Positions 1 to 42,308 of a DNA stretch of 64,000 bases are shown piece after piece. Every line of letters begins with the position of its first letter. Within the stretch, counting starts at the first letter, position 1. The stretch comes from an uncultured Bacillales bacterium. GTDB lineage: Bacteria > Bacillota_I > Bacilli_A > RFN20 > CAG-826. The stretch is taken from assembly GCA_946409515.1 (NCBI GenBank), contig CAMJWS010000001.1, positions 318,824 through 382,823 on the forward strand, in the 5' to 3' direction. Position numbers and translations under genes: made by a program. A model generated the notes under the pieces. The model made no database searches. It worked only from the letters and a program-made list of their open reading frames with translations, and was not told the origin of the DNA.

Positions 1-770
1 TGGAAATCGTGTTGCTTTCCTCTTTTATTCTTTTCGGGAAGCATTTTCCAGTTATTATACAATTGTGTGAGATACATTTCACCATTTTCTGGACCTTTAA
101 CAACAATATTTTCAAATGGATAAGGTTTTGCTTTGCCGAAAACTTCTTTTTTAAAAACTTCGCGCTTTCCATATGACCCATATAGACAGCCAACATATTG
201 ACATTTATCATAGTCTTTTTTCGAAGCGGCTTTATCGATTTTAAGAGAATACTTTTTTGTGTTAATGAAGAATAGGCATCTTCCCATGATGATAAAGATG
301 TTCTTTAAAAAGCTTCGTTCTTTTCTGATAGCGCATGTTTTAGACATAAGCAAATTGTTCATTCTCATTATTCTTTTTGAAAAAGCAATAGATTCTTTGT
401 AAGTGTTTCCAAGCCCATCGATAGGAAAAACGTCGATGTAAATTCCTCTCTTAATGCTTTTTCTTTGCTTTTCTATCAAGGTTGTACTTGTATCATACAA
501 TTTAGAATATGTTAACAAATAATCGTTGTTGTTTTGAAAAGGCGTCTCGAGCATAAAATTGCCTTCTTTTTTATTAAATTCTTTTATTAAACGCTGATAT
601 TCTGGTCTTGGTAAAGCAATATCTATATCGTCATCCCACGGAATAAAACCGCTATGTCTCATTGCCCCGAGAAAACTGCCATAGACAACATAGTAAGTGT
701 AGTCGTTGCTGTTTAGATATTCACAAAACCAAGAAAGCATTTCTAATAATTTTTTTTGTAAATCATTCAC
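1..770 (-). CDS. licD: LicD-family phosphotransferase (phosphocholine/polyol-phosphate transferase), 3' end outside window
   Basis: Reverse-strand translation gives MNDLQKKLLEMLSWFCEYLNSNDYTYYVVYGSFLGAMRHSGFIPWDDDIDIALPRPEYQRLIKEFNKKEG, the LicD signature (GxxLGxxRHxGFIPWDDDxD). The ORF runs off the window start, so it is absent from the ORF track. Probable GTG start at 770 with GGAG 9 nt upstream; an alternative in-frame ATG lies at 737. Confidence 0.75.
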   Translation of the reverse strand, partial: MNDLQKKLLEMLSWFCEYLNSNDYTYYVVYGSFLGAMRHSGFIPWDDDIDIALPRPEYQRLIKEFNKKEGNFMLETPFQNNNDYLLTYSKLYDTSTTLIEKQRKSIKRGIYIDVFPIDGLGNTYKESIAFSKRIMRMNNLLMSKTCAIRKERSFLKNIFIIMGRCLFFINTKKYSLKIDKAASKKDYDKCQYVGCLYGSYGKREVFKKEVFGKAKPYPFENIVVKGPENGEMYLTQLYNNWKMLPEKNKRGKQHDF

Positions 771-790
771 ATCAATAATCTCCGATAAAA

Positions 791-2242
791 TTAGCTCTTT
801 TTTCTAAAAATACTACGGGCTTTCATCAAAATCTTCTTTTCTACATCTATAACCATTTTGTCTTGGAACAAATTAATGCTGATGAAATAAGTTATCACTC
901 CAACCAAAACACACACGATAGTACGCAGAATGATGTTTTTTATCGTAATCAACGGTATGATTACAAGGCCAGCCATTATCAAAGCCGCAACAAACGGTTT
1001 CCAAGTTAGCCTTATTGGGACCAAAAATCTGTCTTCTTTTCTTAAGCCAACAAAAGTAAACAAATCTATTACAATTTCTCCAACAACAGAAGCAACTACA
1101 GCCCCATAAATGCCAAAATAAAAAATTAGAGGTATATTAAGAACTATATTCACAACTGTACCAATAATAAAACCAAAAGTGACCTGCTTTTCTCTGGAAG
1201 AAGCAATTGCTACTTGATAGCAGCACAAATCGCCAATAGATTTAATGAAAACAATAATTGCAAACATACGAACTGCCAAAATCGCTGGTTCAAAGCCTTC
1301 CCCATATAATATTAATATCGCTTCTGGAGCGAGAAGAATACACCCAGCAATTATTGGAAAAGCCAGTAAACAAACAGAATGAATTCCTAGTTGAACTAGT
1401 TCGAAAAACTTCTCTTTGTCATTTGAATAGTAGAAACTCAATCTAGGCAAAAACACAGCAGTCATAGCAGTGCATATATTAACAAATATGGTTATTATGT
1501 TATGAGCATAAGTGTAGTAAGCAACGCTCTCTTTACCAAGCATAGAACCTATCATTGTAATATCCACTTTGCTATACAATGTGCTGCAAATTACCCCAAC
1601 GCCCAAAACAAGGCTGACAAGTAGATGTCTTTTAATATTAATTCCTTTGAAGGTAAACGAAACATATTTTCTTGAGTGAAGCACATTGAGAATGTAGTTG
1701 CATCCAGTCGAAGCGCTTGAGATGTAAGCATAAATAATGAAGTCGTTGGAACTGCGAACAAAAACAAACAATAGAGAAAGCGCTAAAATTTTAATCACAA
1801 TATTTCTGAGAGCAATGTATTGATAATCTTCAACCCCCTGATATAGCCAATCTATGTTCAAAAAATTGAAAACAATTAATAGCCCAGATGCAATGTAGAG
1901 ATTGATATTTTCAGCTCTAAACGCAATTGCTATCAAAGAAATATAAAATAGCGTTGAGACTGCTGTAGTAATAAAGTTGCATATGAATAACTCGCTAAAA
2001 GATTTATTTAGTTCTTCTTTATTTTCCTTGATTTTTGCAATGATTTTGGTTCCATAGTTTGGTAATCCTAAAATCGCCAAAGAGACAAAATAGGACGCAA
2101 TATTTTGTGCATAAGAAACTTCTCCAATACTTTCAACGAGCAAAACTCGGGATACATAAATTGAAACAACAAGCGGAAAGGCAATGTTGATAAATCGATA
2201 CAAAACATTAAAAAAAGTGTTATTACTTAGCGATTTTGACAT
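791..2242 (-). CDS. wzx: Polysaccharide/teichoic-acid flippase, Wzx (MOP/PST family)
   Basis: 483-aa polytopic membrane protein with about 12-14 hydrophobic segments, typical Wzx length and architecture, inside a glycosyltransferase operon. Confidence 0.75.
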   Translation of the reverse strand: MSKSLSNNTFFNVLYRFINIAFPLVVSIYVSRVLLVESIGEVSYAQNIASYFVSLAILGLPNYGTKIIAKIKENKEELNKSFSELFICNFITTAVSTLFYISLIAIAFRAENINLYIASGLLIVFNFLNIDWLYQGVEDYQYIALRNIVIKILALSLLFVFVRSSNDFIIYAYISSASTGCNYILNVLHSRKYVSFTFKGINIKRHLLVSLVLGVGVICSTLYSKVDITMIGSMLGKESVAYYTYAHNIITIFVNICTAMTAVFLPRLSFYYSNDKEKFFELVQLGIHSVCLLAFPIIAGCILLAPEAILILYGEGFEPAILAVRMFAIIVFIKSIGDLCCYQVAIASSREKQVTFGFIIGTVVNIVLNIPLIFYFGIYGAVVASVVGEIVIDLFTFVGLRKEDRFLVPIRLTWKPFVAALIMAGLVIIPLITIKNIILRTIVCVLVGVITYFISINLFQDKMVIDVEKKILMKARSIFRKKS

Positions 2243-2245
2243 AAT

Positions 2246-3262
2246 TTAATCTTTTTTTGCTTGTTTCTTACGTTTTATTCCCCATACATTGCCAACAAAA
2301 GAAAAGCCAAAAACACGGACTAGTCTTGACACTATTTTTTCTTTTCTCTTGACTAAATAAGATAACTCCGACGGGATATCGTACGCTAAACGCATATGCT
2401 TCAGCGCAGATACGAGTTCTTTTCTTTCTGCCCTAGAGTATGATGAGTAATGATAGAGAACGACGCCAATAAGCGATTGGGCATTCAACTTCAGTAAAAC
2501 GCCAACTGTTGTTTTCCGCGGGTAACGTTCTACAGAGTCAAGCAAATTTCCTTTCGCAAAAAACAATAAATCGGATGAAAATTTAAATGATGCAGTATGT
2601 GAAATAGAATCCTTGTGCTCTCGTCTATAATTATAGAGATATGCTGACGAGAAAGACACGGTTGAAGAATTTGCCCATAATTTGTATGTAAAATTAACAT
2701 CTTCACAAAGACGGCCAGCTGGAAATTTTATTTTTTTATCAAAAAGGATTTTTTTCTTTATAACATAGCATACCGAACACCAGCCATATGAGTAGTTGTT
2801 TTCCAAAAATAAAGTCAGAGCTTCTTCTTTATTAACACGCCCCTTGTTTTCCATTTCTCTAGTTATTGTCAAAAATGGTTGCTTTTCATTATTCTCATAA
2901 AACGAATTCATAGAAAAAACTAAAAAATCTGGTTCTTGTTCAGTTATCTGCTGATCTATTTTTAAAAACACATCATCAGACCAAAAATCATCGCTGTCTA
3001 AAAAAACAACGTAGTCTCCAGAAGCCTCTTCTATGCCTCTATTCCTAGCACAAGAGAGACCTCTGTTTGTTTGATGTATTACTTTTACGTTTTTATGCTG
3101 TTTTGAAAGAGTATCCGCCAATGAAGGAGTACTGTCCGTTGAACCATCATCTATAATTATTATTTCTATATTTTCACCATTTGGCTGATACGCGACACTT
3201 TCCACACACTTTTGAAGAAAGTTTTCGACATTAAATGCAGGTATGACAACACTATACATCAT
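2246..3262 (-). CDS. Glycosyltransferase family 2
   Basis: N-terminal VVIPAFN...IIIDDGSTDST...DSDD motifs (GT-A fold, DxD). Confidence 0.85.
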   Translation of the reverse strand: MMYSVVIPAFNVENFLQKCVESVAYQPNGENIEIIIIDDGSTDSTPSLADTLSKQHKNVKVIHQTNRGLSCARNRGIEEASGDYVVFLDSDDFWSDDVFLKIDQQITEQEPDFLVFSMNSFYENNEKQPFLTITREMENKGRVNKEEALTLFLENNYSYGWCSVCYVIKKKILFDKKIKFPAGRLCEDVNFTYKLWANSSTVSFSSAYLYNYRREHKDSISHTASFKFSSDLLFFAKGNLLDSVERYPRKTTVGVLLKLNAQSLIGVVLYHYSSYSRAERKELVSALKHMRLAYDIPSELSYLVKRKEKIVSRLVRVFGFSFVGNVWGIKRKKQAKKD

Positions 3263-3265
3263 TTA

Positions 3266-4210
3266 TTACCCCTCCTTTTTTAGAATCCTAACAAAGAAAA
3301 ATAGAATAGTTATAAATAATCTCTTCCAGCCGAAGCAACGCCTCATAGCATGTGTATATTGCATGCACATTGACTCATAGTTGGCATCAGAAGAAAACAT
3401 TTTTTTCTCTAGATAAATACCTAACAATATAAAGAAACAGCGTTTATCTAAAAAGTGTCGCAAAAATGGCTTTTTTTCACTTTTTGACAATTGATTAATA
3501 GCATTGCAAATAAATGTTTTATCAAATACCTTTTTAATGTTACGGGTAGTCGTGATAGAACCTGCTCTATTGGCTGTATTCACATAACAAGGGAAATTGT
3601 TAAAAATGAATGAATTGGCTAAGCAAATCACTTTTGGGGACCATAATTCATCTTCGTGATAAATCCCTTTTTCAAATTCAATGCCATTTTCCATTAAAAA
3701 AGACCTTTTAGTAACAAATGACCAAGCAGAATACCAAAAACCTTTTGCCTTATATAAAACTTTCAGAGCATCTTTTTTGTCCAGTGTGGTTTCATCTTTC
3801 ACGAAAGACCATTTATTCTCAACTGTCTCATTTGAATCTTCAAAATACGATAAGATGCGGCTAATAATCACATCAGGTTCTTTTTTACATAAAAAACGTA
3901 AGGAATCTAACGCTCCTTCAGGAAGAAAATCATCACTATCTAGCCAAATAACATACTTTCCATTTGCCTCATGAAGGCCTGCATTTCTTGCATCAGACAA
4001 ACCACCATTTTCTTTTTTTACAATTTTGATATTTGATTTGTTAAATTTTTTGCATACATCAAGTACAACATCAACTGTTGAATCTGTTGAACCATCATCA
4101 ACAACTATTATTTCACAATCTCCGCCATCTTGTTTGATTACGCTGGTTAAAGATTTAGCGATATATTTTTCTCCATTAAAAACTGGAATCACTATACTAA
4201 AAAGAATCAT
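3266..4210 (-). CDS. Glycosyltransferase family 2
   Basis: SIVIPVFNGEKYI...VVDDGSTDST...LDSDD motifs. Confidence 0.85.
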   Translation of the reverse strand: MILFSIVIPVFNGEKYIAKSLTSVIKQDGGDCEIIVVDDGSTDSTVDVVLDVCKKFNKSNIKIVKKENGGLSDARNAGLHEANGKYVIWLDSDDFLPEGALDSLRFLCKKEPDVIISRILSYFEDSNETVENKWSFVKDETTLDKKDALKVLYKAKGFWYSAWSFVTKRSFLMENGIEFEKGIYHEDELWSPKVICLANSFIFNNFPCYVNTANRAGSITTTRNIKKVFDKTFICNAINQLSKSEKKPFLRHFLDKRCFFILLGIYLEKKMFSSDANYESMCMQYTHAMRRCFGWKRLFITILFFFVRILKKEG

Positions 4211-5168
4211 GCTTTTTCACCATTCTCCTGAAATGCAATAATTTTGCAACTATTCGTAAGCCAAAAAGCGGAATCAAAAAACGAACTATTTTTTGTTTAC
4301 CATTTTTTGTATACTTCACAATAAATTTTGTGCCCTTCAATTCTTTTAGAAGAGTTTTCTTTTCCTCTCCAGCAAAAAAAGAATAAGAAGAAAGCGATGC
4401 ATAAAACTCTTTTGAAATGTTGTTCAGCAATTCCATTTTTAATCGTCTATCCGACAAGCTATCAAAAAATTCAAAATTCTTTTTGACTGTTGTCAATCTG
4501 TTTAATTCGTTTTTTAGATTTGGCTTGCTTGTTATTGATCCTGGGCGCCCTAATTGATATTCATAGGCTTCAATCATGATCGGAGCAATGTGAGAAACCA
4601 AAGATAACGCTCTTGGTATTAAGTACACGTCTTCATAATTAATACCTTCTGGGAAGAATAAGCCATTAGAAACTAAAAAAGACTTTCTAAACAAATATTT
4701 CCAAGCATACCACCTAAAATGCGTTTTCTCTAAAATATTTGCCAATGTTCGCTCACCATCAATTTGAATTGGCAAATATTCTTCAACAGTCTTCCCATTT
4801 TTTATTGTCTTGTAGCCAAATTCATAAACATCAAAATCACAATTCTTCGCGTGATCTATTAAAATATCAATGGCACCATTGGCCAAGCAATCGTCAGAAT
4901 CAAGAAATTGGATGTATTCTCCTGTGGAAACATTTATTCCATAATTCCTTGCGCTGGATAGTCCTCCGTTGGTTTTTGTGAAAACTTTTACTCTTTTATC
5001 TATAGCAGAAATTTGCTCACACAATAAAAGACTATTGTCCGTTGAACCGTCATTGATAATGAGAACTTCGAAACAATTTTCTTTGCTCTTAAGCAAAGAG
5101 TCGAGGCATCTTTCAATAAGACTATATGTATTATAAACAGGTATTACTATACTTAATAACTTGCCCAT
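4197..5168 (-). CDS. Glycosyltransferase family 2
   Basis: LSIVIPVYN...INDGSTDNS...LDSDD motifs. Start chosen at internal Met (MGKLLSIV); the longer ORF to 5261 would overlap the upstream gene. Confidence 0.8.
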   Translation of the reverse strand: MGKLLSIVIPVYNTYSLIERCLDSLLKSKENCFEVLIINDGSTDNSLLLCEQISAIDKRVKVFTKTNGGLSSARNYGINVSTGEYIQFLDSDDCLANGAIDILIDHAKNCDFDVYEFGYKTIKNGKTVEEYLPIQIDGERTLANILEKTHFRWYAWKYLFRKSFLVSNGLFFPEGINYEDVYLIPRALSLVSHIAPIMIEAYEYQLGRPGSITSKPNLKNELNRLTTVKKNFEFFDSLSDRRLKMELLNNISKEFYASLSSYSFFAGEEKKTLLKELKGTKFIVKYTKNGKQKIVRFLIPLFGLRIVAKLLHFRRMVKKHDSF

Positions 5169-6265
5169 ATGATTGCTTTTTCTAGAGAATCGATAGTATA
5201 AGGGATGACGTTGTCCTTGCCAAAGCCTCCTTCGGCAAATTTCAAGTTGATTATCATCCATATGAAAAGAACACCATAAATAGCAGCCGGGACAAAAGTT
5301 TTTACCACTAAGTTACGGCTCCTTTTAATATTGTAAATTGAATTTGCAATCACAATTGGAAAGAAGGCAAAGAAATAATTCGAGAATCTTGATATCATTG
5401 CATTTTTAAGACTTAGCAATTGGAAAAAGAGTGAAAAGCACATAGCGCAATAAAGCATTGTATCAAGCCTCATTTCTTCTGTTCTATTGGTAATAAAAGA
5501 AAATGCCAAAATTTTATTCTTATCCATGACAATAACAGCAGCAAACAGAAGTAGATAAACAACGAAAAATCTGAGAGCACCTGTTTCTGTTTCACCAGGT
5601 CTATCTGCATACCCACTGTACATAAAACGCGTCAAAAATGAAAAAATTGGATCGAATAAAATGAAAACCAACAAAGTGATTGCTATAAAGAGGAACAGAG
5701 TCTTGAATGTAAACTTTTTAATAAAGAGAGACGCTATGATAAATAACAAAAAAACAAAGGCGCTTTTATGAATAGTTATAGCAACAAGATTTACGATAAT
5801 AGCAGGTATATATTTCTTTTTATAGGTCAAATAAAATGAAAGCATGCAGATACACACAGCCAAATCATTTCTCTGTGTGTTCATTAATCTCGTATAATAA
5901 CAAAACATGAAGAATAAAATTATGCTTGTTCCAAGACTTTTTGATGTCTTGTAAAAGACAAAAAAAGCAAGGCAAAGTGACAAGGAGCCCACAACAAAGA
6001 AAAAGAAAGTTTTTGTAGGAGAGATAAAAAAGATTGCTTTATTAAGATATAGCCATCCAGGCTCAATATATGTTGATGAAATATCAGTTTTCGGAGATTC
6101 CATAAACATATCAACATATGCCTTAGTATCCCATCCAACATTCACGCTTCTAAAAGTATACACTGCAATAAGTATTACTAGCGAGATGAGTAAAAGAACT
6201 TTTTTATTCTTCACTAAAACTGCAAGTATGATTATTAATGCTAAGAGAGATAAATAAAACAACAT
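5153..6265 (-). CDS. Wzy/EpsG-like oligosaccharide repeat-unit polymerase (polytopic membrane protein)
   Basis: About 370 aa with around 10 TM segments and no soluble domain, sitting between GT2 genes. Start trimmed to an internal Met to avoid overlap with the 6273 gene. Confidence 0.55.
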   Translation of the reverse strand: MLFYLSLLALIIILAVLVKNKKVLLLISLVILIAVYTFRSVNVGWDTKAYVDMFMESPKTDISSTYIEPGWLYLNKAIFFISPTKTFFFFVVGSLSLCLAFFVFYKTSKSLGTSIILFFMFCYYTRLMNTQRNDLAVCICMLSFYLTYKKKYIPAIIVNLVAITIHKSAFVFLLFIIASLFIKKFTFKTLFLFIAITLLVFILFDPIFSFLTRFMYSGYADRPGETETGALRFFVVYLLLFAAVIVMDKNKILAFSFITNRTEEMRLDTMLYCAMCFSLFFQLLSLKNAMISRFSNYFFAFFPIVIANSIYNIKRSRNLVVKTFVPAAIYGVLFIWMIINLKFAEGGFGKDNVIPYTIDSLEKAIIWASY

Positions 6266-6272
6266 AATACTG

Positions 6273-7256
6273 CTACATGCCGCGCATCTTTTTAATCTTT
6301 TTTTGCACAAAATAAACCATTTTGGTCAGTAAAAAGAGTCTGTGGGAGATAAGAAAAATTAGAAGGCGAACTCTCAGAGAATATCCTTTTATATAAAAAT
6401 TTTTTGTATTAAATAGCGGGCTTGTTTTTGCTGCTCCAATATACTCTTTCCATTCATGTCTTTTCATCGTTTCTAGCGATGATAATCCTGTAGAATATAC
6501 ATATTCAAGCATAAATATAGCCTCTTTTTCACACGAGAAAGAATCATTCAACATATCATCGATAGTTTTGAAAGCGAGCTGAGCATTTTTGATATCAAGC
6601 AAAGTAACGTCGTGCATAAGCGATGATTGATTTTGAAAATACAAATAAAGTGGAGCACAAATATGAAAAAACGAGGAACAATTTGATATTGCTACCTTTG
6701 TAAAAGGCAAATCTTCATTTCTTCTTATGCATAAGAAACGCGCTGAACTTTCAATTAATACCTTTCTTTTATAAATTTTGCCGCACGTCATTCCCTTTGA
6801 ATAAACTAACACTGAACTGGCAGAAGGCATATTATTGTTGTCGCCATTTGTCATAATGTTTGATGTGTACGACCTTTTCCCGTTAATAATCTTGTAGTCA
6901 AACATAATGCAATCATAATTCCGCTTCAAAAGTGGAAAAACCATATCAAAAAAAGAATCATCAAATCTATCATCAGAATCTAAAAAAGTTACATATTCTC
7001 CTGTTGATTTATTGATACCCTCATTTCTACTAAAACCTGGTCCAGAATTACTCTCATTAAATACTAAGACTACATCCAGTTTTGTTTCTTTTGCAAAAGA
7101 AATCAATTCATTGCGGGAATCATCGGTAGAACAATCATCTATCACAATAAACTCAATATTTAATGAATTAGATTGTACAGACTGGCTTTTTAAGTAACTA
7201 ATAATAGTCTCAGATGAGTTGTAACATGGAATAACAATTGAAAGAAGCTTTGACAT
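6273..7256 (-). CDS. Glycosyltransferase family 2
   Basis: LSIVIPCYNSSETI...VIDDCSTDDS...LDSDD motifs. Confidence 0.85.
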   Translation of the reverse strand: MSKLLSIVIPCYNSSETIISYLKSQSVQSNSLNIEFIVIDDCSTDDSRNELISFAKETKLDVVLVFNESNSGPGFSRNEGINKSTGEYVTFLDSDDRFDDSFFDMVFPLLKRNYDCIMFDYKIINGKRSYTSNIMTNGDNNNMPSASSVLVYSKGMTCGKIYKRKVLIESSARFLCIRRNEDLPFTKVAISNCSSFFHICAPLYLYFQNQSSLMHDVTLLDIKNAQLAFKTIDDMLNDSFSCEKEAIFMLEYVYSTGLSSLETMKRHEWKEYIGAAKTSPLFNTKNFYIKGYSLRVRLLIFLISHRLFLLTKMVYFVQKKIKKMRGM

Positions 7257-7268
7257 TTTATTTCACCC

Positions 7269-8105
7269 TTACATTTTGGTGGAATTTCTGGCGAACTTTT
7301 TATAAACATAAGATCTTATTTTATTTGGTAGCAAGACTTGAACTATGAATCGTTTTAAACAATTTGCTATATAAGTTGAGAAATTTATTATTTTGTTTTT
7401 AAACATAAACGATTGGAGTTTTTTTTCACTCTTGTAATAAGATAAGCCACCTCGTCTTGCGTACTGATTGGCACCAGTTCTCACGTTGACTAAATTTGTA
7501 CCAGTGTTTGCAAATGTGGCATTATTTAAAAGCATTCTAACCCAAAGATAGTAGTCTTCATTGAAATGTAAATCTAGATACCCGCCCGATTCAAGTAGAG
7601 AGGTTTTTTTAAGCATCACTGTCATGTGATTGAAAGGACATCGTTTTTTTAAATACTTTTTAATTTCGTTATCAAACATTGGAACATTTCTGTAACTAAC
7701 GACATTATTTTCGTTGTCCACAAACTCTGAAATATTGCCTCCAACAACATCAACATGGTCATTTTTTTCGAAAAACATTAGTTGCTGCTCAAATCTATTC
7801 GGAATGGCAATGTCGTCACTGTCCATACGAGCAATTAACTCATTTGAGCAATTTTCTGTGGCTATTTTCAGTGCATTGCCTAAGCCTCCATTGGTTTCTA
7901 ATCTAATTGCTTTCAAATTAAATCTTTCGGAATACTTGTTAATAACGGTGTTTATTTCATCAGGAACAGGACCGTCAACCACCAATACAATTTCATCTGG
8001 TTTGATTGTTTGCTGATCAGTGATGCTCTCCAATGCCCTATCAAAATAACAAGGGGCATCGTTTTTATATACAGACATCGCAACGGAAAATGATTTGTGT
8101 TTCAT
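7269..8105 (-). CDS. Glycosyltransferase family 2 (WcaA/AmsE-like)
   Basis: SVAMSVYKND...LVVDGPV...RMDSDD motifs. Confidence 0.8.
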   Translation of the reverse strand: MKHKSFSVAMSVYKNDAPCYFDRALESITDQQTIKPDEIVLVVDGPVPDEINTVINKYSERFNLKAIRLETNGGLGNALKIATENCSNELIARMDSDDIAIPNRFEQQLMFFEKNDHVDVVGGNISEFVDNENNVVSYRNVPMFDNEIKKYLKKRCPFNHMTVMLKKTSLLESGGYLDLHFNEDYYLWVRMLLNNATFANTGTNLVNVRTGANQYARRGGLSYYKSEKKLQSFMFKNKIINFSTYIANCLKRFIVQVLLPNKIRSYVYKKFARNSTKM

Positions 8106-8867
8106 TTAGTCTCCCATCAAGTTTTCTGCTTCTAGCTGCTTTTGGTTGTATTCAGCCTCATCAATCGTTCCCTTTTGTAAAAGCCAATCACCATAATCTA
8201 TATCACTTGCCGTACCATCTCGGACAGTATTCTCTCTTTTAAAAACTTTGAATATTGTTCTCACAATTAGCATAAAATCACCAAACAGCGTAATCGCGTC
8301 AACATATTGTAAGTCATATTCTAGTTTTTGCTCCCATGTAATATTATTTCTACCATTCACTTGTGCTAATCCAGATAATCCTGGTCTAATGTCGTGTCTG
8401 CGCCTTTGTTCTTTGGTCATGAACACCATATCTCTAACTAATTGAGGGCGTGGTCCAATAATAGACATGTTACCAATAAAGATATTAAATAATTCAGGTA
8501 GTTCGTCCAAACTTGTGGATCTTAAAAATTTGCCATATTTATTAAGTCTCAGTTCGTCTGGCAGCAGTTTCCCAGAACTGTCTCGTTTATTTGACATAGT
8601 ACGAAACTTGACTAGTCTAAAAATTCTTTCCTTTCCGTTTTTACTCTTTTTGCCTGGTCTCTTTTGTAAAAAGAAGGGATTCCCCCTCATAAAAACTGCT
8701 CCAAGAAAAGAAAGTAAAACAAGGATTGGACATAGAATTAATATAGCAAGCCCTGACAAAAATATATCCCAAAAACGTTTAAAAAATGGCTTATAAAAAA
8801 GCCATGATAAAAGAAACAACAATGAGAAACTCCCAACTATTATGCTCAAAATCCAATACCATTCCAT
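8106..8867 (-). CDS. Undecaprenyl-phosphate sugar-phosphate transferase (bacterial sugar transferase, initiating enzyme)
   Basis: N-terminal TM followed by the conserved core KRPGKKSKNGKERIFRLVKFRTM...LDELPELFNIFIGNMSIIGPRP (Bac_transf / PglC-WbaP C-terminal domain). Confidence 0.85.
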   Translation of the reverse strand: MEWYWILSIIVGSFSLLFLLSWLFYKPFFKRFWDIFLSGLAILILCPILVLLSFLGAVFMRGNPFFLQKRPGKKSKNGKERIFRLVKFRTMSNKRDSSGKLLPDELRLNKYGKFLRSTSLDELPELFNIFIGNMSIIGPRPQLVRDMVFMTKEQRRRHDIRPGLSGLAQVNGRNNITWEQKLEYDLQYVDAITLFGDFMLIVRTIFKVFKRENTVRDGTASDIDYGDWLLQKGTIDEAEYNQKQLEAENLMGD

Positions 8868-8870
8868 GGA

Positions 8871-10151
8871 TTATTCAAAACACCTCTTAATTGTTTCAAT
8901 GATTTTATCTTGTTGTTCTGGTGTCATTTTATTATCTGATGGCAAGCAGCATCCTCTTTCGAAGATGTCAGCGCCTACATCTTTAACTCCACCAGCAATG
9001 TATGCGTTAGTACGGCATCTAATTGTGCCATCTCTACCAATACATTCATGCATTCTATACATTGGTTGCATATGCATTGGTTTCCAGATCGGTCTACCTT
9101 CAGCGTTAAGGCTAGCAATAGCTTCTAAAATTTCTGTTGGGCATGATTTGCCATGTTCAGAAACATATAATGATTTTGAATCATCTCTAACTTGTTTGCA
9201 CATTGCATCTTTATCAATAATCAATGCTGATAACCAGTAATTTGGTTTTGTGTTATCAACGATAGGATTGAGCTTAACTGGTAAGTCTTTTAGCCCTTCA
9301 ACATATCTATCATAAATTGCTTTCTTTTGAGCAATATGTTCATTTAAATACGGATACTGTCCACGGATAACACCAGCAATAACGTTACTCATTCTATAGT
9401 TATAACCGACTTCTTCGTGTTGATACCAAGGAGCATTCTCTCTGGCTTGTGTTGACCATTTACGTGCTTTATTAGCGACTTCTAGGTCATTTGTTAGCAA
9501 ACAGCCACCACTGGAACCAGTGATTATTTTATTGCCGTTGTATGAAACGGCAGCGTAGTCACCAAACGAACCACATGGTTGACCATTTAAATATGCGCCC
9601 ATTGCTTCAGCGGCATCTTCAATTAAAAGAGCCCCATGCTTATGACAAATATCTCTAATTAAATCAATTCTACCTGGGAAACCATATAATTCAGCACAGA
9701 CAACTAGTTTAACTTCTGGATATAATTCAAAAGCTTTTTCCAAAGCTACTGGATCCATATTCCATGATGATTCTTCTGTGTCAATAAAAACTGGAATACC
9801 ACCTTCATACACTACTGGGTTTAATGTGGCGTCAAACGTCATATCAGAGCAGAAGACTCTTTTACCTTCTAATGCACCATGACTGATTTGTGGTTTATCA
9901 TATAATCTTTCACCAGCAAACTTAACGCATAAATGTAAAGCAGATGTACAGTTGCATAATGCTACTGCATATTTAACACCTGCTTGTTTGGCAGCTAGTC
10001 TTTCTACTTCGTTGATGTTTTCACCTACTGTTGACATCCAGTTTGTCTCATAGGCTTCTTTCATGTATTTAAGTTCTTCGCCATGCATTGTTGGGGAAGC
10101 TAAATACAATTTCTTTTCAAATGGTTTTAAATCATCTTTTCTAACAAGCAT
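8871..10151 (-). CDS. DegT/DnrJ/EryC1/StrS-family PLP-dependent sugar aminotransferase (PglE-like)
   Basis: 426 aa; DegT-family sequence features (ALHLC, SFNGNKIITGSSGG) and overall length. Confidence 0.85.
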   Translation of the reverse strand: MLVRKDDLKPFEKKLYLASPTMHGEELKYMKEAYETNWMSTVGENINEVERLAAKQAGVKYAVALCNCTSALHLCVKFAGERLYDKPQISHGALEGKRVFCSDMTFDATLNPVVYEGGIPVFIDTEESSWNMDPVALEKAFELYPEVKLVVCAELYGFPGRIDLIRDICHKHGALLIEDAAEAMGAYLNGQPCGSFGDYAAVSYNGNKIITGSSGGCLLTNDLEVANKARKWSTQARENAPWYQHEEVGYNYRMSNVIAGVIRGQYPYLNEHIAQKKAIYDRYVEGLKDLPVKLNPIVDNTKPNYWLSALIIDKDAMCKQVRDDSKSLYVSEHGKSCPTEILEAIASLNAEGRPIWKPMHMQPMYRMHECIGRDGTIRCRTNAYIAGGVKDVGADIFERGCCLPSDNKMTPEQQDKIIETIKRCFE

Positions 10152-10174
10152 ATTTTTATGCTCCTTAAGATAGT

Positions 10175-11506
10175 TTATGCAACTTTCTTTTCTTTTCTAA
10201 CTGCTCTTACCAAGTAGAAGATTGCGATACCTAATACCGCAACCATCATAATAGGAGCGGAAACTTTAATTGCTCTAACAATAAATGAACTTGAGAAAAT
10301 TGATGCATTGTTATGATAAACATTACTTGTGGCAATTGTGTCTTTCATAACATATTCATCATTATATTTTTCAATCATTGTTTTAAATAAAGTTTCTAAA
10401 TCGTTATAATCTGTACCTAATTTAGCAATCATGTTCTTAACTGTGTTTTCTACTTCTTCTGTGGAGGTAGCACTATTAAGAGTATCTAAAATGTTTTGAT
10501 AATCAGCAATTTGCTTTTCAATTGATGTAATCATATTGGAAGTGCTGATTTGTTTTGCTAATAAGGTGTTATATGTTTCTACAGAGTTAGATTCGACTTT
10601 GATGATGTTTTCACCAGTACCAACATACACTGTGGAGTCGATTTCGTAGTTATTAACTTGAGCAGTAATGGCCGCTAAATCGGATGTATATTTGGTTTTA
10701 TCGTAGTTAAGTCTTTCAATTAAGTATGTGTAATAATCTTTTAATCTTTGGACGTCTTTACTTAAAGCGTTTAAGACGATGATGTTATTAATCTTATTAG
10801 CGTCTGTATTGATTAATGATTGAGCTTTTAAGTAAAGATCTCTAAATGACTTACCATCAATTAAGAAATCATCATGTTCTTTGAAAACACTATCAGCGTA
10901 GTCCATTAACACTTCTAATCTGGTGGACATGATTTGGCTTTGATAGATGTAGTCATAATTGTCTAAGTTAAACAATTCTTGATAGGCATCTTGTGCAAAT
11001 GTTTTCTTATAAGTTGTATAGAACTTTTCACTATACTTAACGACAATGTTTTCTAAAAACTTATTGAGTTTACCTGTTGATAATTTACTATCTAAGTCTT
11101 GATACACTACGAAACGATATCTAACTGGGTGATAGTCCTTAGAAGAAATCTTTCTGCCATCACTTTCGCCAGTGATGTGTTCGTATGAGTTAATCTCTTC
11201 AACGATGTTACCTGGGACAGAGTTTTCTAAAACGATATAAGGTTTAACTTTTTCAACTTCATAAGTTAATCCTGTTTCAGCTAAGGCGTCTTCAATAATA
11301 TCGTTAGTTAAAAAGCTAACTGGATTGAATGAATTACCGTTAGGGTCTTTACCATCAGAAGCACCATCATAGTTAAATTGAATGGTTTCACTTGAATAGG
11401 CTTGAACCTTGTTAATTGCTTTATAGTCAATAACGGAATAAACGAGACTAAAGATTGCCGCACCGATAAAGACGAATGCTGGGATCCAAATATGTTTGTT
11501 TTTCAT
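10175..11506 (-). CDS. Wzz-like polysaccharide co-polymerase / chain-length determinant (PCP), paralog 1
   Basis: N-terminal TM, a large coiled-coil extracytoplasmic region, a C-terminal TM, and a DGKDPNGN motif shared with the next gene. Start set at MKNKHIW (11506), preceded by GGAGG. Confidence 0.6.
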   Translation of the reverse strand: MKNKHIWIPAFVFIGAAIFSLVYSVIDYKAINKVQAYSSETIQFNYDGASDGKDPNGNSFNPVSFLTNDIIEDALAETGLTYEVEKVKPYIVLENSVPGNIVEEINSYEHITGESDGRKISSKDYHPVRYRFVVYQDLDSKLSTGKLNKFLENIVVKYSEKFYTTYKKTFAQDAYQELFNLDNYDYIYQSQIMSTRLEVLMDYADSVFKEHDDFLIDGKSFRDLYLKAQSLINTDANKINNIIVLNALSKDVQRLKDYYTYLIERLNYDKTKYTSDLAAITAQVNNYEIDSTVYVGTGENIIKVESNSVETYNTLLAKQISTSNMITSIEKQIADYQNILDTLNSATSTEEVENTVKNMIAKLGTDYNDLETLFKTMIEKYNDEYVMKDTIATSNVYHNNASIFSSSFIVRAIKVSAPIMMVAVLGIAIFYLVRAVRKEKKVA

Positions 11507-11507
11507 A

Positions 11508-13028
11508 TTACATAGCCTCCTTATTTTCATTTGCTTTTCTGACGTTTCTGAATTCGATGATAAACGCATCGCCAATCCAGATGATTAAGCCAACGGCTAA
11601 ACCAGCAGCGTCGCCTAAGGCAAATAGCTTAAGATTGTCCTTTAAACTTTCTGTCTTTGTTGTGGTGATTGTATGCATATATCTGTTCTTATATGCGTTA
11701 GAAGCAAATAATTCTTGAGAAGATTTGTTTACCAAACCATACACAGCTTTAGCGTTTGCTAATGCCTTACTGGTGTATTCTTGTGCTTTTGCTTTTTGGT
11801 CAGCGGTGGCTTCTGGACCATCTAACTTAGTTATACGGTCCGCTAACATATCGATTCTTTCTTGAAGTTCAGATTTATGTTCATTCATTTGAGTGAGTTC
11901 TAAAACTAATCTATTGTATTCTGCATCAGTGTGTGGAACTTCAATTGGTGTACCATTATCAGTATTAACAACAACCTTACCATTCTTATAGTGTTCAATA
12001 GAATTTTGTAATGTTGTGATATTAGAAGTTGTTTCTGCTAAATCTAATTCCGCTTGTCTCTTTTGCATCTCACAATATGTCTTTAAAATGAGCTTGTCTT
12101 TATAGACGTTATTTAGTGAAATGTACGAATAGATATAATCAATATCAGTGCTCTTTAATCTATTGATGGTTTTAGATAATTCTGAGAACGAAACACCATC
12201 AGTTGTTCTGAAATTAGGAAGAATAGCAGTTTTCTCATCACAGTACTTAGCGAGATAGTTCATTGAATTACTAATTTCATCTAGTGTTTCTAAGTAGTCT
12301 AGTGTTTCTTCATTGACTGCACTTAAGTAGTCGTTAGGTAATGTCTTTTCTTGGTATGTTTCAACAAAATATTCATTATAGGATTCTGTAATTGCGCTTA
12401 ATAAGTGTTGCAAGTCATTGGTAGGCAAAACAATCTTGTCGCTTCCAGAACTAAACACATTGCCAATTGTAATGACATATTGTGGTCTATATTTCAATGT
12501 GAATTGTTGGATTAATCTACCATATTCACTGTTCTTTTCTTGAAGTAACTTATCTAAGATTTCTTTTTGTTGTTTTGTTTTATCAGTTAAGATACCAGTG
12601 ATTTGAATATTGTTTTGTACTTGAGCGGTACTTAGCTTCTTGGAAAGCGTTACATTATTTAAAGCGTTATTCACAATATAGGAAGACTTTAAATATGTGA
12701 TATCAAGGTCATTACCATTTGGATCTTTTCCTTCATCCGCTTCAGCGTAATCTAAAGAAAGAATAGATACCGCTTGTTCATTCTTATCTTTAAGTTGATA
12801 CATTAATGTTGGCACTAAAAGACCCACTAAGAATGTGGATAAGATTAACCAACCAAAGATTTTGAATCTCTTTCCTAAGGTGGAGAAGACATTCATGATG
12901 GATATACCTTGTTCTTGGTCTTCTTGATTGTTATTGATGTAAAGATCAATTTTCTTGCTATTTTCCAAAGATTGGGCTTCTTCTTTAGTCTTCTTCTTTG
13001 GTTTTAGCACTTCTTTTTCTTCAGGCAT
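11508..13028 (-). CDS. Wzz-like polysaccharide co-polymerase / chain-length determinant (PCP), paralog 2
   Basis: Same topology (N- and C-terminal TM, long coiled-coil periplasmic domain) and a shared DEGKDPNGND motif. AGGAGG lies 8 nt before the ATG. Confidence 0.6.
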   Translation of the reverse strand: MPEEKEVLKPKKKTKEEAQSLENSKKIDLYINNNQEDQEQGISIMNVFSTLGKRFKIFGWLILSTFLVGLLVPTLMYQLKDKNEQAVSILSLDYAEADEGKDPNGNDLDITYLKSSYIVNNALNNVTLSKKLSTAQVQNNIQITGILTDKTKQQKEILDKLLQEKNSEYGRLIQQFTLKYRPQYVITIGNVFSSGSDKIVLPTNDLQHLLSAITESYNEYFVETYQEKTLPNDYLSAVNEETLDYLETLDEISNSMNYLAKYCDEKTAILPNFRTTDGVSFSELSKTINRLKSTDIDYIYSYISLNNVYKDKLILKTYCEMQKRQAELDLAETTSNITTLQNSIEHYKNGKVVVNTDNGTPIEVPHTDAEYNRLVLELTQMNEHKSELQERIDMLADRITKLDGPEATADQKAKAQEYTSKALANAKAVYGLVNKSSQELFASNAYKNRYMHTITTTKTESLKDNLKLFALGDAAGLAVGLIIWIGDAFIIEFRNVRKANENKEAM

Positions 13029-13070
13029 TTTGTTTACCTCCTACTTCTCGCGTATGTATGTGTATTAATA

Positions 13071-13095
13071 TGCAAAAAGCATCACGAATGATGCA
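13071..13095 (-). terminator. Candidate intra-operon intrinsic terminator/attenuator between the dehydratase and wzz genes
   Basis: Minus-strand transcript reads GCAUCA-UUCG-UGAUGC (6-bp stem, 4-nt loop) followed by UUUUUG, placed between the capD stop and the wzz RBS. Confidence 0.4.
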
Positions 13096-13125
13096 TGAAT
13101 ATTAAATTATTTACTTTTTTTCTAA

Positions 13126-15087
13126 TTACTTTTGATCGCCGTTTATATATGTTGGCACCACTTCTTTAAGAGCGCCTTTAGTGATGCTATTAGATTTAAG
13201 CGCCATTGCTTTTCGTAATATGTCTAACTTTTCATTAAGTTCATCCATTGAGATCGGATGATCTTTTTCAATGAAGATTTTTTCATTTTCTGTTTTAGTT
13301 AGTCTTTCATCTTTCACTAATAACTCTTCATATAGTTTTTCACCTGGTCTTAAACCAGTTTCAACGATATCGATATCCTTGTATGGTTCATAACCAGACA
13401 TTTTGATAATGGATATCGCTAAATCATAAATTTTGACTGGTTGACCCATATCAAGAACCATTAATTCACCATTTTTAGCAATAACGGCACTATGTAAGAC
13501 TAATTGAGATGCTTCTGGGATAGTCATGAAGTACCTAATAATACGTTTATCAGTTAATGTGACTGGGCCACCATTAGCGATTTGTCTTTTGAATAATGGG
13601 ATAACTGAACCCGCACTACCTAAGACATTACCAAACCTAGTTGCAGAGAATGTTGTGTGCTGTCTCTTTCTAGCATGTGTCATACAAATCATCTCACACA
13701 TACGCTTAGTAGCGCCCATGACGTTTGTAGGATTCACCGCCTTATCAGTAGAGACCATATGGACTCTATCTGTTTTATATTTTTCTGCTAACTCGACTGT
13801 ATTTAATGTACCAAAGACGTTGTTATCAACCGCTTCAATGATATTATGTTCCATAAGTGGGACATGTTTATGAGCAGCGGCCATAATCACAATATTTGGT
13901 TTATAGGCTTTGAATACTTTTTCTAAAGCGTCTTTATTAGTGATGCTACAGATTTCTACTTGTAAATCTAAGGCATCTTTATATTGGATTTTTAATTCTT
14001 GTTGAATGTCATAAACACCATTTTCATAGATATCTAAAAGAATGAGTTGTTTTGGTTCCATCTTCGCTAATTGTCTAGCGATTTCGCTGCCAATAGAACC
14101 ACCACCACCTGTAACTAAGATAACTTTGCCTTTGTAGTAGTTGATTGTTTCTTCGGTAATGACTTCTTGTTCTTTACGGAATAGTAAGTCTTCAATATCA
14201 AAGTCTCTTAATGTTCTTCTACCTTTAGAGGCTGATTGCATCGCTGGATAGTCATATGACTTAATCTTAAATCCTGCGTTTTTATAACGTTCATAAATTG
14301 CTTTTCTTTCTTCCATACCAACGGAAGCAGGAAGAGCAATAATGACTTCTTGCACGTTATAGTCTCTTAATAAGCCAGGAGCGTGTTCATCATCATATAG
14401 GACTTCTTTACCAAAGATTTCTCTACCAAGTTTTTCTTTATCGTTATCAACGAAACAGACTGGATAGTATGTGGAGTTTGGATTGTCTAATAGTTCTTTA
14501 GCTAAGCCAGTACCGACACCACCAGCACCAACAATTGCGATTCTAATCTTAGCGACTGGATCTCTATCGTCTTTGCTCCATCTAGCTCTCGCAAAGATGT
14601 TAACAAAGCCAACCATAAACTTACCAAACTTGGACTTACGGTTAACAGAGATATAAAGCCATCTATAAACCATACGGACCGCGAGTGATACAAGCGTTGT
14701 GGTTAGAACGATAAATGTGACAACCACGAACTCTAATGGGTCTTTGAAAATTGGAACATACTTTTGGATGAAGAAATAGATGAAGAGGGTGATTGTATCC
14801 GCGATCATGACACGGATGTAAGAACCAACACCACCATATCTCCAGACTTGTCCATAGACTCTAAGGAAGAATCTAGCGGTAATAAGAATTGGCATTGAGA
14901 TGGCAAAATGGATAAGCACCTCTAATGCTTCTTGTGGGTTCGCTAATGGGCGTCCGCCTGAGCGCGGGAAAAAAATAAGAGCGAACACCACGACTGTGGC
15001 GTAAATTAAAATGTCATAGGCCACTAATAACCATCTAATAGGGAATAGTGAATACCTATGTTTTCTACTCTTTAATGTTTTACTCAT
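13126..15087 (-). CDS. capD: Membrane-anchored UDP-N-acetylglucosamine 4,6-dehydratase (CapD/PglF/WbpM family)
   Basis: N-terminal 4-5 TM helices and two Rossmann motifs (VGAGGVGTGL and VTGGGGSIGSE); length 653 aa is typical of PglF/CapD. Confidence 0.85.
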   Translation of the reverse strand: MSKTLKSRKHRYSLFPIRWLLVAYDILIYATVVVFALIFFPRSGGRPLANPQEALEVLIHFAISMPILITARFFLRVYGQVWRYGGVGSYIRVMIADTITLFIYFFIQKYVPIFKDPLEFVVVTFIVLTTTLVSLAVRMVYRWLYISVNRKSKFGKFMVGFVNIFARARWSKDDRDPVAKIRIAIVGAGGVGTGLAKELLDNPNSTYYPVCFVDNDKEKLGREIFGKEVLYDDEHAPGLLRDYNVQEVIIALPASVGMEERKAIYERYKNAGFKIKSYDYPAMQSASKGRRTLRDFDIEDLLFRKEQEVITEETINYYKGKVILVTGGGGSIGSEIARQLAKMEPKQLILLDIYENGVYDIQQELKIQYKDALDLQVEICSITNKDALEKVFKAYKPNIVIMAAAHKHVPLMEHNIIEAVDNNVFGTLNTVELAEKYKTDRVHMVSTDKAVNPTNVMGATKRMCEMICMTHARKRQHTTFSATRFGNVLGSAGSVIPLFKRQIANGGPVTLTDKRIIRYFMTIPEASQLVLHSAVIAKNGELMVLDMGQPVKIYDLAISIIKMSGYEPYKDIDIVETGLRPGEKLYEELLVKDERLTKTENEKIFIEKDHPISMDELNEKLDILRKAMALKSNSITKGALKEVVPTYINGDQK

Positions 15088-15089
15088 AA

Positions 15090-15623
15090 CTATTTGTTAA
15101 TGATATTTGTGATGATATTGATACCAATAGGAGCGGTCACTAGTCTTCCGCACATCATGAATTCCACTAGGACTGTTCTCTTATGGAGATTGACTTTCTT
15201 GATTTGAGTTTCTAAACCCATTAAAGGTCCATCTAAAACTCTAATCATTTCACCTTCTTTAACTTCGATGTTTGATATTTCAGTAATGCGGTTATTATTC
15301 GCACTATAAAGGATATCAATCATACGGGATTCATCTTTATCTAGGGGCACAAAGTTTTCTGTTCCCTCTTCTCTACCTAAGAGCTTTTGAAAACCTGGAG
15401 TGAAATATAACTGTCTAAACAATTCTCTAACATTATTAGTTTCCACAAAAATATAGCCAGGGAAGCATCTTTCGATAACTTCTTTAGTTTCACCCTTATA
15501 TTTGCGAAGTGATTTACGATATGGCGAGAAAACGTCGAAAGATGCATCGTCTGGCTTATTTTTCAATATGTCCTCGATGGCTTGTTGTTCTTTCCCGGTT
15601 TTGACTTGAATAACGTAATACAT
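15090..15623 (-). CDS. NusG-paralog specialised transcription antiterminator (LoaP/UpxY/RfaH-like), first gene of the glycopolymer operon
   Basis: 177 aa with an NGN domain (YYVIQVKTGKEQ...PGYIFVE) and a C-terminal KOW-like region (GEMIRVLDGPLMGLETQIKKV). Sits at the head of the operon after a roughly 490-bp leader. Confidence 0.7.
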   Translation of the reverse strand: MYYVIQVKTGKEQQAIEDILKNKPDDASFDVFSPYRKSLRKYKGETKEVIERCFPGYIFVETNNVRELFRQLYFTPGFQKLLGREEGTENFVPLDKDESRMIDILYSANNNRITEISNIEVKEGEMIRVLDGPLMGLETQIKKVNLHKRTVLVEFMMCGRLVTAPIGINIITNIINK

Positions 15624-16052
15624 AACTTAAATAACTCCGTTTTTAGGCATGCTCGTTCATTAGATATAGTCCAATAAATATACCTAGAAAATAAGATGAC
15701 TTCTATCCCCTATAAGAGTGCCATAAGCTTCAGGTTAGTAAGATAGATGATGAAGGTGTAGTGATAAAGTATTAAAACTTTATTGCGTGCCGCTATTATA
15801 AAACGTTTCTTTGAAAATATGCAACTCTTGGCAGAAAAAAACTAGAATCTAAGGTTAATAAACCAACATTCTAGTCAAATATTTGAAATTCAATAAAAGA
15901 ATGTAAGGTATAAGATAAAACCTTACTTAATTCCTTGCTATTGATGTCTCCCTTGATGTTAAACATAATAAATTGCAAGACGTATTTATAAAAGCATCCT
16001 ACATTACTTATTATACTTAATAAGAAACTTTAGACAAACAAATTATCGCATG

Positions 16053-16083
16053 TGTATATAAAAATGGGCGCATAAGGCCCATA
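16053..16083 (-). terminator. Intrinsic terminator downstream of uppS
   Basis: Minus-strand AUGGGCCUUAUGCGCCCAU hairpin followed by a U-run. Confidence 0.6.
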
Positions 16084-16112
16084 TGTTATACAAATACGTG
16101 TATGTGTAAGAT

Positions 16113-39646: not shown

Positions 39647-39648
39647 AA

Positions 39649-40803: not shown

Positions 40804-40873
40804 ATACCGTCTCCCTTATATATGTATGCCTTTACATACATTATAACGAATTATACGTATACGCGCTAATTAT

Positions 40874-41836: not shown

Positions 41837-41904
41837 AGTGGTTTACCACCTTTCACTTATTAGACGTTAATAAATATAGAAAACTGCTAAACAAATATCA
41901 ATCT

Positions 41905-42255: not shown

Positions 42256-42308
42256 GAACGTGACACATTATCAAAGTATTATTAGCACTATTATCTTGAG
42301 ATAATTAC

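Follow-up and report, generated by a model that had tools for sequence, protein, structure and literature searches.

A LoaP-type antiterminator gene at the head of a probable strain-variable capsule or exopolysaccharide locus in an uncultured rumen Bacillales bacterium

We analysed a 64-kb stretch of DNA from an uncultured Bacillales bacterium (contig CAMJWS010000001.1; the whole stretch is called the window here) that contains a glycan locus headed by loaP, a gene for a NusG paralog, at positions 1-15623. The locus is cut at base 1 of the window, past LicD; all statements of absence therefore cover its visible part only, and further genes may lie beyond base 1. Scans with Pfam and NCBIfam reproduced the order of 14 genes, all on the minus strand, that an earlier sequence-only reading of the same DNA had proposed, and family matches verified dxs-ispH-uppS directly 5' of them (Table 1). 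The listing of open reading frames (ORFs) shows long ORFs in 1-22000 on the minus strand only. A priming phosphoglycosyl transferase (PGT), a Wzx flippase and a Wzy polymerase are all present, which is the Gram-positive Wzy-dependent set, and the Bac_transf, Polysacc_synt and EpsG matches support the proposed Wzx/Wzy-dependent glycan locus. The same scans detected no bacterial tyrosine kinase (BY-kinase), phosphatase, LCP protein, hexapeptide acetyltransferase or glycan ABC exporter in 1-15623. Neither a CpsC/CpsD BY-kinase pair nor a CpsB phosphatase nor a CpsA (LCP) ligase was found there or in the rest of the window, where LCP and licABC genes were lacking as well. The absence of a kinase, phosphatase, CpsA/LytR, PglD and ABC exporter, as first read from the sequence, thus holds for the visible locus; for PglD it is limited to that part, and the locus of one relative (L002) has a PglD-like gene beside its PGT gene.

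Table 1. Coordinates of genes and features of the locus and its 5' flank, in the direction of transcription.
Feature	Position	Strand	Basis or details
dxs	19537-17690	-	family match
ispH	17686-16829	-	family match
uppS	16826-16113	-	family match
Terminator-like hairpin with U-run, end of dxs-ispH-uppS unit	16082-16058	-	
Small promoter-to-terminator unit, uppS to loaP promoter	16037-15835	-	
Promoter-like sequence of small unit	16037-16010	-	TTGTCT-16-TATAAT
ORF of small unit	15966-15871	-	31 codons
Hairpin with U7 of small unit	15874-15835	-	
Candidate loaP-operon promoter	-35: 15824-15819; -10: 15800-15795	-	TTGCAT, 18-nt spacer, TATAAT
Leader element	15766-15621	-	146-nt covariance-model match including the ATG
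Leader, conserved core (~100 nt)	15747-15646	-	
Leader helix P1	15747-15736 with 15712-15702	-	
Leader helix P2	15728-15720	-	
Leader helix P3	15685-15662	-	
Leader, conserved tail	15660-15646	-	AUGAACGAGCAUGCC
loaP, NusG paralog (177 aa)	15623-15090	-	NusG NGN and weak KOW
capD/pglF-like membrane UDP-GlcNAc 4,6-dehydratase (653 aa)	15087-13126	-	Polysacc_synt_2 PF02719, 9e-113
Intrinsic-terminator-like hairpin between capD and X506	13094-13073	-	GCAUCA-UUCG-UGAUGC + UUUUUG
X506	13028-11508	-	no family match; co-polymerase by fold and remote homology
X466	ORF 11575-10175; real start ATG 11506	-	paralog of X506
DegT, PglE-like sugar 4-aminotransferase	10151-8871	-	Pfam DegT
Small monotopic PglC-like PGT, priming enzyme	8867-8106	-	Bac_transf 1.5e-51
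GT2 glycosyltransferase, first of five	8105-7269	-	Pfam GT2
GT2, second	7256-6273	-	Pfam GT2
EpsG-family Wzy-type polymerase	6310-5153	-	EpsG 3e-39
GT2, third	5261-4197	-	Pfam GT2
GT2, fourth	4210-3266	-	Pfam GT2
GT2, fifth	3262-2246	-	Pfam GT2
Wzx-type flippase, MOP family	2242-791	-	Polysacc_synt 2e-23
LicD-family phosphotransferase	770-1	-	PF04991 4.9e-46; GTG start 770-768; C-terminus beyond window edge

The product of the first gene is a dedicated antiterminator of a known kind, LoaP. It matched the NCBIfam model NF033641 (antiterminator LoaP) with 132.8 bits at a cutoff of 125, which bears out its earlier designation as a dedicated NusG-paralog antiterminator, and it stayed well under the cutoffs of the models for UpxY (66 vs 100 bits), RfaH (46 vs 144.5 bits) and, likewise, housekeeping NusG. 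The Pfam NusG match had an E-value of 6e-12, that of KOW (0.003) was under the KOW cutoff, and the nearest chain in the PDB was 8f5g (E 1.9e-15). loaP heads an operon of >15 kb and holds the same position in all relatives. LoaP genes often adjoin secondary-metabolite or polysaccharide operons; their products bind an RNA hairpin with a UNCG tetraloop in the leader of the target operon and antagonise NusA-stimulated intrinsic termination, including that at intra-operon terminators (PMC12691694). A LoaP-linked capsular polysaccharide locus has been noted in Eggerthella lenta (PMC13131767).

The nearest solved homologs of CapD, DegT and the PGT were Campylobacter jejuni PglF (PglF/WlaL, 5bju; 6e-86), PglE (1o61; 8e-62) and PglC (8e37; 2e-52). 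As a prediction from sequence, the 4-amino-4,6-dideoxy-HexNAc-type primer suggested earlier is well supported by this PglF/PglE/PglC-like trio; its N-acetylation state and the gluco or galacto configuration at C4 are not readable from sequence. The same trio, EpsC/EpsN/EpsL, primes Bacillus subtilis exopolysaccharide (EPS) with diNAcBac (PMC10653937). No PglD/EpsM-type N-acetyltransferase (hexapeptide, PglD_N) was found in the visible locus, and such a gene may lie beyond base 1. LicD is a bona fide member of its family (PF04991) and may transfer choline or polyol phosphate. Its best NCBIfam match was a cholinephosphotransferase model (92 bits vs a cutoff of 225), and a sequence search of the PDB gave no match. 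The 64-kb window holds no licA/B/C, choline kinase, cytidylyltransferase or CDP-alcohol genes, and the transfer of phosphocholine by LicD, which the sequence-only reading had put forward, is left unsupported by these results. This glycan chemistry, a bacillosamine- or AATGal-type primer with LicD decoration, is ordinary.

Comparison of the locus with those of relatives revealed three architectures, and relatives always carry the locus after dxs-ispH-uppS. In seven distinct loci (type A: window, L002/3, L005, L007, L009/10, L026/27 and L037) a leader is followed by loaP, capD, a hairpin, two genes that we call X506 and X466, and variable genes. In four (type B: L029, L030, L031-33 and L034) the genes cpsC (Wzz, ~270 aa), cpsD (BY-kinase) and cpsB (phosphatase) precede leader, loaP, capD, hairpin and variable genes, and the X pair is missing. 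The third architecture (type C: L035/36) consists of leader and loaP, a gene for a bitopic protein of 484 aa (X484) without BLAST similarity to X506 or X466, a large PGT (572 aa), Alg14, Glyco_tran_28_C, Wzy_C and a short Wzz; it has neither capD nor a terminator-like hairpin after loaP. The X pair thus occurs in seven distinct loci, CpsC-CpsD-CpsB in four and both together in none. We base the assignment of the CpsC/D/B role to the X pair mainly on this either/or distribution at one site, in strains with 84-100% identical LoaP proteins.

The genes downstream of the shared 5' module differ in every lineage. Wzx, the EpsG polymerase and LicD of the window have no counterpart in the locus of any relative, in a tabulation that did not include the GT2 genes. 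Locus L007 encodes a LoaP 100% identical to that of the window and has different glycan genes, with a PGT, an HpcH/HpaI-like protein, LicD, a class I/II aminotransferase, a cytidylyltransferase-oxidoreductase fusion and a 2-hydroxyacid dehydrogenase at its positions 9663-14286; this suggests a serotype with a LicD-transferred, CDP-activated phosphate of an unusual alcohol or acid.

X506 and X466 are paralogous, sharing 23% identity across 320 residues (E 6e-11). The start codon of X466 lies 1 nt past the stop of X506 and yields a protein of 443 aa without the long N-terminal cytoplasmic segment of X506, which carries a conserved motif. Neither protein matched a Pfam or NCBIfam family, and searches of the PDB by sequence returned no significant match, only chance coiled-coil matches. 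An AlphaFold (AF2) model of X506 (24 homologs, pLDDT 80) showed an N-terminal and a C-terminal transmembrane (TM) helix, a small alpha/beta base and long antiparallel helices. This is the topology of polysaccharide co-polymerases (PCPs), in which two TM helices flank an extracytoplasmic alpha/beta base with a long helical hairpin. A Foldseek search of the PDB with this model had only PCPs at the top (Wzc, 4e-6, prob 1.0, then WzzE, Wzz and KpsE), with low TM-scores of ~0.2. A profile search of 1.84 billion representatives detected 1049 members of the X506 family at 50% clustering (E <= 1e-3); among the matches listed, no homolog carries a source name. Of 47 members scanned, 13 reached Pfam Wzz (best 2e-6) and two GNVR. 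Since such matches occur in relatives and not in the window proteins, the homology of X506 and X466 to Wzz is transitive only. By predicted fold and remote sequence similarity, both appear to be divergent members of the PCP superfamily; the description of the two genes as Wzz-like is upheld at the level of superfamily, fold and remote homology and fails at that of Pfam and NCBIfam.

Two representatives contain X506-like and X466-like halves in one chain, P0123 (978 aa), which aligns with X466 over its full length (31% identity, E 4e-63), and P0265 (945 aa), a more distant tandem. These fusions suggest that X506 and X466 act together. P0123 may be a frameshift artefact rather than a natural fusion, as the two genes are 1 nt apart in the window. 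Homologs of the X pair with ~50% identity were also found in other glycan loci, behind a helix-turn-helix (HTH) regulator and nucleotide-sugar genes.

What the locus makes and what the X pair does can each be read in another way. A teichoic-acid-like polymer of pneumococcal logic, in which AATGal would be the primer and LicD would attach phosphocholine, had been inferred earlier; the trio of priming enzymes fits it, a free 4-amino sugar being possible as no PglD is in view, and so do the presence of LicD and the identity of its best NCBIfam model. That model was, however, missed by a wide score difference, the choline genes named above are absent from the window, and the galacto configuration required for AATGal cannot be deduced. 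Teichoic-acid loci normally vary little among strains of a species. Here, the glycan genes are hypervariable among strains with identical or near-identical LoaP, and sister strains carry CpsC/D/B at the same site, which argues for a serotype-type capsule or EPS locus and makes the pneumococcal analogy very improbable. As to the X pair, the two proteins could belong to envelope machinery of another kind, for example an export scaffold or an anchoring system, and have only the helical-hairpin shape in common with PCPs; the missing family matches and the low TM-scores would agree with this. Against it stand the Wzz matches among relatives, the PCP-like topology of the model, the mutual exclusion with CpsC/D/B in the same locus and the occurrence of the pair in other glycan loci, and we regard such an alternative role as highly unlikely.

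A leader element precedes loaP in all three architectures. Its core of ~100 nt is conserved above the LoaP protein itself (75-91% aa identity in the same loci), with the near-invariant blocks CAUCUAUCUUACUAA, GGCAC, AUAGGGGAUAGA, UCUAGGUAUAU and AUAUCU-AUGAACGAGCAUGC, and its unpaired segments are strongly conserved in sequence. RNAalifold predicted three helices, P1 with 8+3 bp, P2 with 3 bp and a variable triloop, and P3 with 7 bp including a G.U pair and a variable loop. With a covariance model, each locus gave exactly one match (95-178 bits), which in every case lay immediately 5' of loaP and at a fixed distance from its ribosome-binding site (RBS); in type-B loci this places the leader mid-operon, between cpsB and loaP. 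No second copy was found in the 64-kb window. In the leader alignment, 99.2% of the cells were paired, compared with 34-62% when partners were slid, and five cells with double changes were counted as against 0.7 in shuffles (0/500). One P1 pair appears as C-G, U-A, A-U and U-G across loci, and a P3 pair is replaced, U-A giving way to C-G. Searches with Rfam revealed no family for the leader, EAR included (15560-16120 at E <= 10 with permissive filters; 1-24000 at E <= 1), and no pairing with the Shine-Dalgarno (SD) sequence was obvious.

The candidate terminator with a 6-bp stem, noted earlier inside the operon, is present after capD, is followed by a U-run and is kept in relatives. In a strict scan, 10 of 12 distinct loci had a stem-loop with a U-run ~20-60 nt past the capD stop, and 11 of 12 once an over-long gene call in L026 was corrected; over 500 dinucleotide shuffles of the same intergenic regions, the average was 0.09 loci and the highest count 2. 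The stems differ in sequence and keep their complementarity (GCAUCA/UGAUGC, GCAUCGA/UCGAUGC, GCGAUG/CAUCGC, ACAUCC/GGAUGU, UGCAUC/GAUGCA, CCAUAGUU/AACUAUGG and GCAUCU/AGAUGC), and the loops vary (UUCG, UCCG, CUUG, UUAU, GUCA, ACA). Support for the hairpin is comparative. As it is kept in types A and B, it belongs to the loaP-capD module. The UUCG hairpin itself (13094-13079) was considered as a ligand of LoaP and rejected as the main explanation, given the U-run that follows and the varying loop in relatives; the UUCG of the window is probably just a stable tetraloop.

By analogy with the hairpin of the dfn operon and with EAR, we prefer to read the leader as a LoaP-associated cis element that would act on elongating complexes. 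Its main rival is an operator of autoregulation or translation, or else a ligand-sensing RNA, through which the expression of loaP alone would be controlled and which would be no loading site for LoaP. Such an operator would account for the constant spacing to the loaP RBS, even mid-operon in type B, for the lack of a UNCG hairpin and for the strong conservation of unpaired segments. However, no riboswitch or leader family of Rfam matched under permissive settings, anti-SD pairing was not obvious, and the analogies with the dfn hairpin, EAR and the UpxY leader favour elongation control (PMC12691694, PMC10653937, PMC11685472); we therefore hold a pure loaP operator to be the less likely of the two, while still a serious contender. 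For the hairpin after capD, the documented action of LoaP (PMC12691694) suggests, again by analogy, a weak intrinsic terminator serving as a LoaP-sensitive checkpoint. It might instead terminate transcription constitutively and in part, or stabilise the mRNA as a 3' stem-loop, and set a fixed ratio of loaP-capD to downstream transcripts independently of LoaP. The short, weak stem and the 5-U tract, from which leaky termination is expected, and the conservation of the hairpin whatever genes come after it are compatible with that. Its invariable position immediately after loaP-capD in operons headed by an antiterminator gene, and the documented suppression of weak NusA-stimulated terminators by LoaP, intra-operon ones included (PMC12691694), speak for the checkpoint, and a LoaP-independent hairpin appears unlikely.

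Taken together, the locus is likely to be the 5' and central part of a LoaP-controlled, strain-variable Wzx/Wzy capsule or EPS cluster at a fixed site after dxs-ispH-uppS, with a logic close to that of the B. subtilis eps and streptococcal cps loci and not teichoic-acid-like. Its modules follow each other as candidate promoter, leader of ~100 nt, loaP, capD, weak putative terminator, X506-X466 and strain-specific genes from the PglE-like aminotransferase to LicD. LoaP made from the first cistron would modify RNA polymerase, probably after engaging the leader, and the modified polymerase would pass the post-capD terminator and continue along the >15-kb operon, so that read-through would constitute a positive-feedback checkpoint. 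CapD and DegT are predicted to form UDP-4-amino-4,6-dideoxy-HexNAc, and the small PGT to transfer the 4-amino sugar onto undecaprenyl phosphate. GT2 enzymes and LicD would build and decorate the repeat unit, Wzx would flip it and EpsG/Wzy polymerise it, with the X506-X466 pair in the chain-length or assembly role that CpsC/CpsD/CpsB hold in sister strains. Three features are, as far as described systems go, new: the conserved leader, the equally conserved putative checkpoint terminator downstream of capD, and a pair of kinase-less putative PCPs in alternation with CpsC/D/B. More tentatively, and with the odds somewhat against the two holding jointly, the leader could be an RNA of a new class, different from both EAR and the UNCG hairpin, that serves LoaP recruitment or antitermination, and X506-X466 could be a kinase-independent heteromeric PCP that has displaced the CpsC/CpsD/CpsB phosphorylation module in a Gram-positive lineage.

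Several observations weigh against this interpretation. The covariation in the leader is thin, with two pairs showing double changes in an alignment that was fitted to the model, and its folding energy is unremarkable (z = -0.2 for P1/P2 and -1.4 for P3); the robust facts about the leader are therefore its sequence conservation and its strict linkage to loaP. The UNCG tetranucleotide or hairpin, the only documented RNA ligand of LoaP, is absent from the leader region of ~165 nt. Taken alone, the post-capD hairpin is of low stability (-6.8 kcal/mol, z = -1.7), its UUCG loop is not conserved among relatives, and locus L031 lacks the hairpin. X506 and X466 do not match Pfam Wzz (PF02706) or GNVR even at E <= 0.1. 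A proline-rich motif is usual next to the second TM helix (TM2) in PCP families; it is absent here, X506 having no Pro in residues 440-506 and X466 a single Pro before TM2, and TM2 of both proteins is Gly-rich. The visible locus contains no LCP ligase and no acetyltransferase and is cut off at base 1, and the host belongs to a rumen Bacilli lineage that is known from metagenomes only.

Among described systems, LoaP of B. velezensis with its dfn and mln operons shares the NCBIfam family of the NusG paralog, the linkage to a long biosynthetic operon and intrinsic terminator-like hairpins within the transcription unit. In contrast to that system, loaP is here the first cistron of its own putative target operon, the leader lacks the UNCG hairpin and has a multi-helix element of ~100 nt outside Rfam in its place, and the candidate checkpoint terminator follows the second gene instead of lying in the leader. 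The B. subtilis epsA-O operon has the same PglF/E/C-type route (EpsC/N/L) to a bacillosamine-type priming sugar, an EpsG-family polymerase, Wzx and many glycosyltransferases. Its processive antitermination RNA, EAR, sits between epsB and the capD-like epsC, and the type-B leader occupies the same position, between the kinase genes and the epsC counterpart (PMC10653937). Unlike epsA-O, the window has no Rfam match to EAR, a protein antiterminator gene is inserted, no EpsM/PglD is in view, and two large kinase-less PCP paralogs replace EpsA/EpsB (PCP and kinase).

Streptococcal and lactococcal cps/eps loci are similar in their conserved 5' module followed by hypervariable serotype genes, their fixed chromosomal site and their Wzx/Wzy-dependence, and sister strains of the clade studied here have CpsC-CpsD-CpsB. 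The window differs from them in the absence of CpsA (LCP), CpsB and CpsD, in the size of its putative PCPs (443-506 aa vs ~230 aa for CpsC) and in the presence of LoaP. In the Bacteroides UpxY/UpxZ and the RfaH/ops (JUMPStart) systems, a locus-encoded NusG paralog, the first gene of the capsule operon, likewise acts via the 5' leader (PMC7819879, PMC11685472), whereas the paralog described here belongs to another NusG subfamily, has no UpxZ-like second gene beside it and occurs in a Gram-positive host. CapD, DegT and the PGT have their nearest solved homologs in the Campylobacter pgl system; unlike it, the visible locus contains no PglD acetyltransferase and no PglB oligosaccharyltransferase, and the presence of Wzy, the putative PCPs and Wzx points to a polymer as product, unlike the protein-linked heptasaccharide of Campylobacter.

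To our knowledge, the mechanism of LoaP has been studied on polyketide operons only, and its polysaccharide-linked members have no defined cis element. The conserved, alignable leader and the candidate checkpoint terminator offer a concrete candidate target of LoaP for the regulation of capsules in gut and rumen Firmicutes. The X506 family is unannotated and comprises about a thousand representatives at 50% clustering. With the putative PCP pair and CpsC/D/B alternating at one site, these strains form a natural experiment that asks if Wzy-dependent assembly in monoderms can do without tyrosine phosphorylation.

Between uppS and the candidate loaP promoter, whose hexamers are conserved in type-A relatives with a variable spacer sequence and which leaves a 5' untranslated region of ~165 nt, lies a small promoter-to-terminator unit. 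The promoter-like sequence is followed by ~165 nt that hold an ORF without SD sequence, the peptide of which is poorly conserved; the closing hairpin is strong (-13.6 kcal/mol, z = -4.8), and the arrangement is kept in relatives. The unit would insulate loaP from upstream transcription and may be a small RNA. In two relatives (L002, L029), the gap between uppS and the loaP promoter also contains a gene for an XRE-type HTH protein. The dxs-ispH-uppS units of L002, L005, L026, L029, L030 and L035 are repeatedly interrupted by HepT/MNT, AbiEii, PIN/RelB, Fic and Gp49/HTH cassettes; with these toxin-antitoxin and defence cassettes among its genes, the region looks like an insertion hot spot beside the capsule locus.

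Elsewhere in the window, three copies of the cow-rumen-1 RNA (RF02946; 23547-23606, 23868-23929 and 24168-24228, minus strand) scored 73-78 bits at a gathering score of 53.4. They are spaced ~300 nt apart, are the only Rfam matches in the window and fit a rumen origin. The plus strand at 35188-37224 encodes a 678-aa fusion of HTH_3, phosphomethylpyrimidine-kinase-like and PALP domains. A partner-switching-like module was found at 37790-43433 (minus strand), with a fusion of a SpoIIE phosphatase and a HATPase_c_2 kinase domain (37790-39646) and two fusion proteins of STAS and APH (phosphotransferase) domains (39649-40803 and 42309-43433). A bacterial serpin (PF00079, 8e-31) is encoded at 49829-51301 (plus strand).

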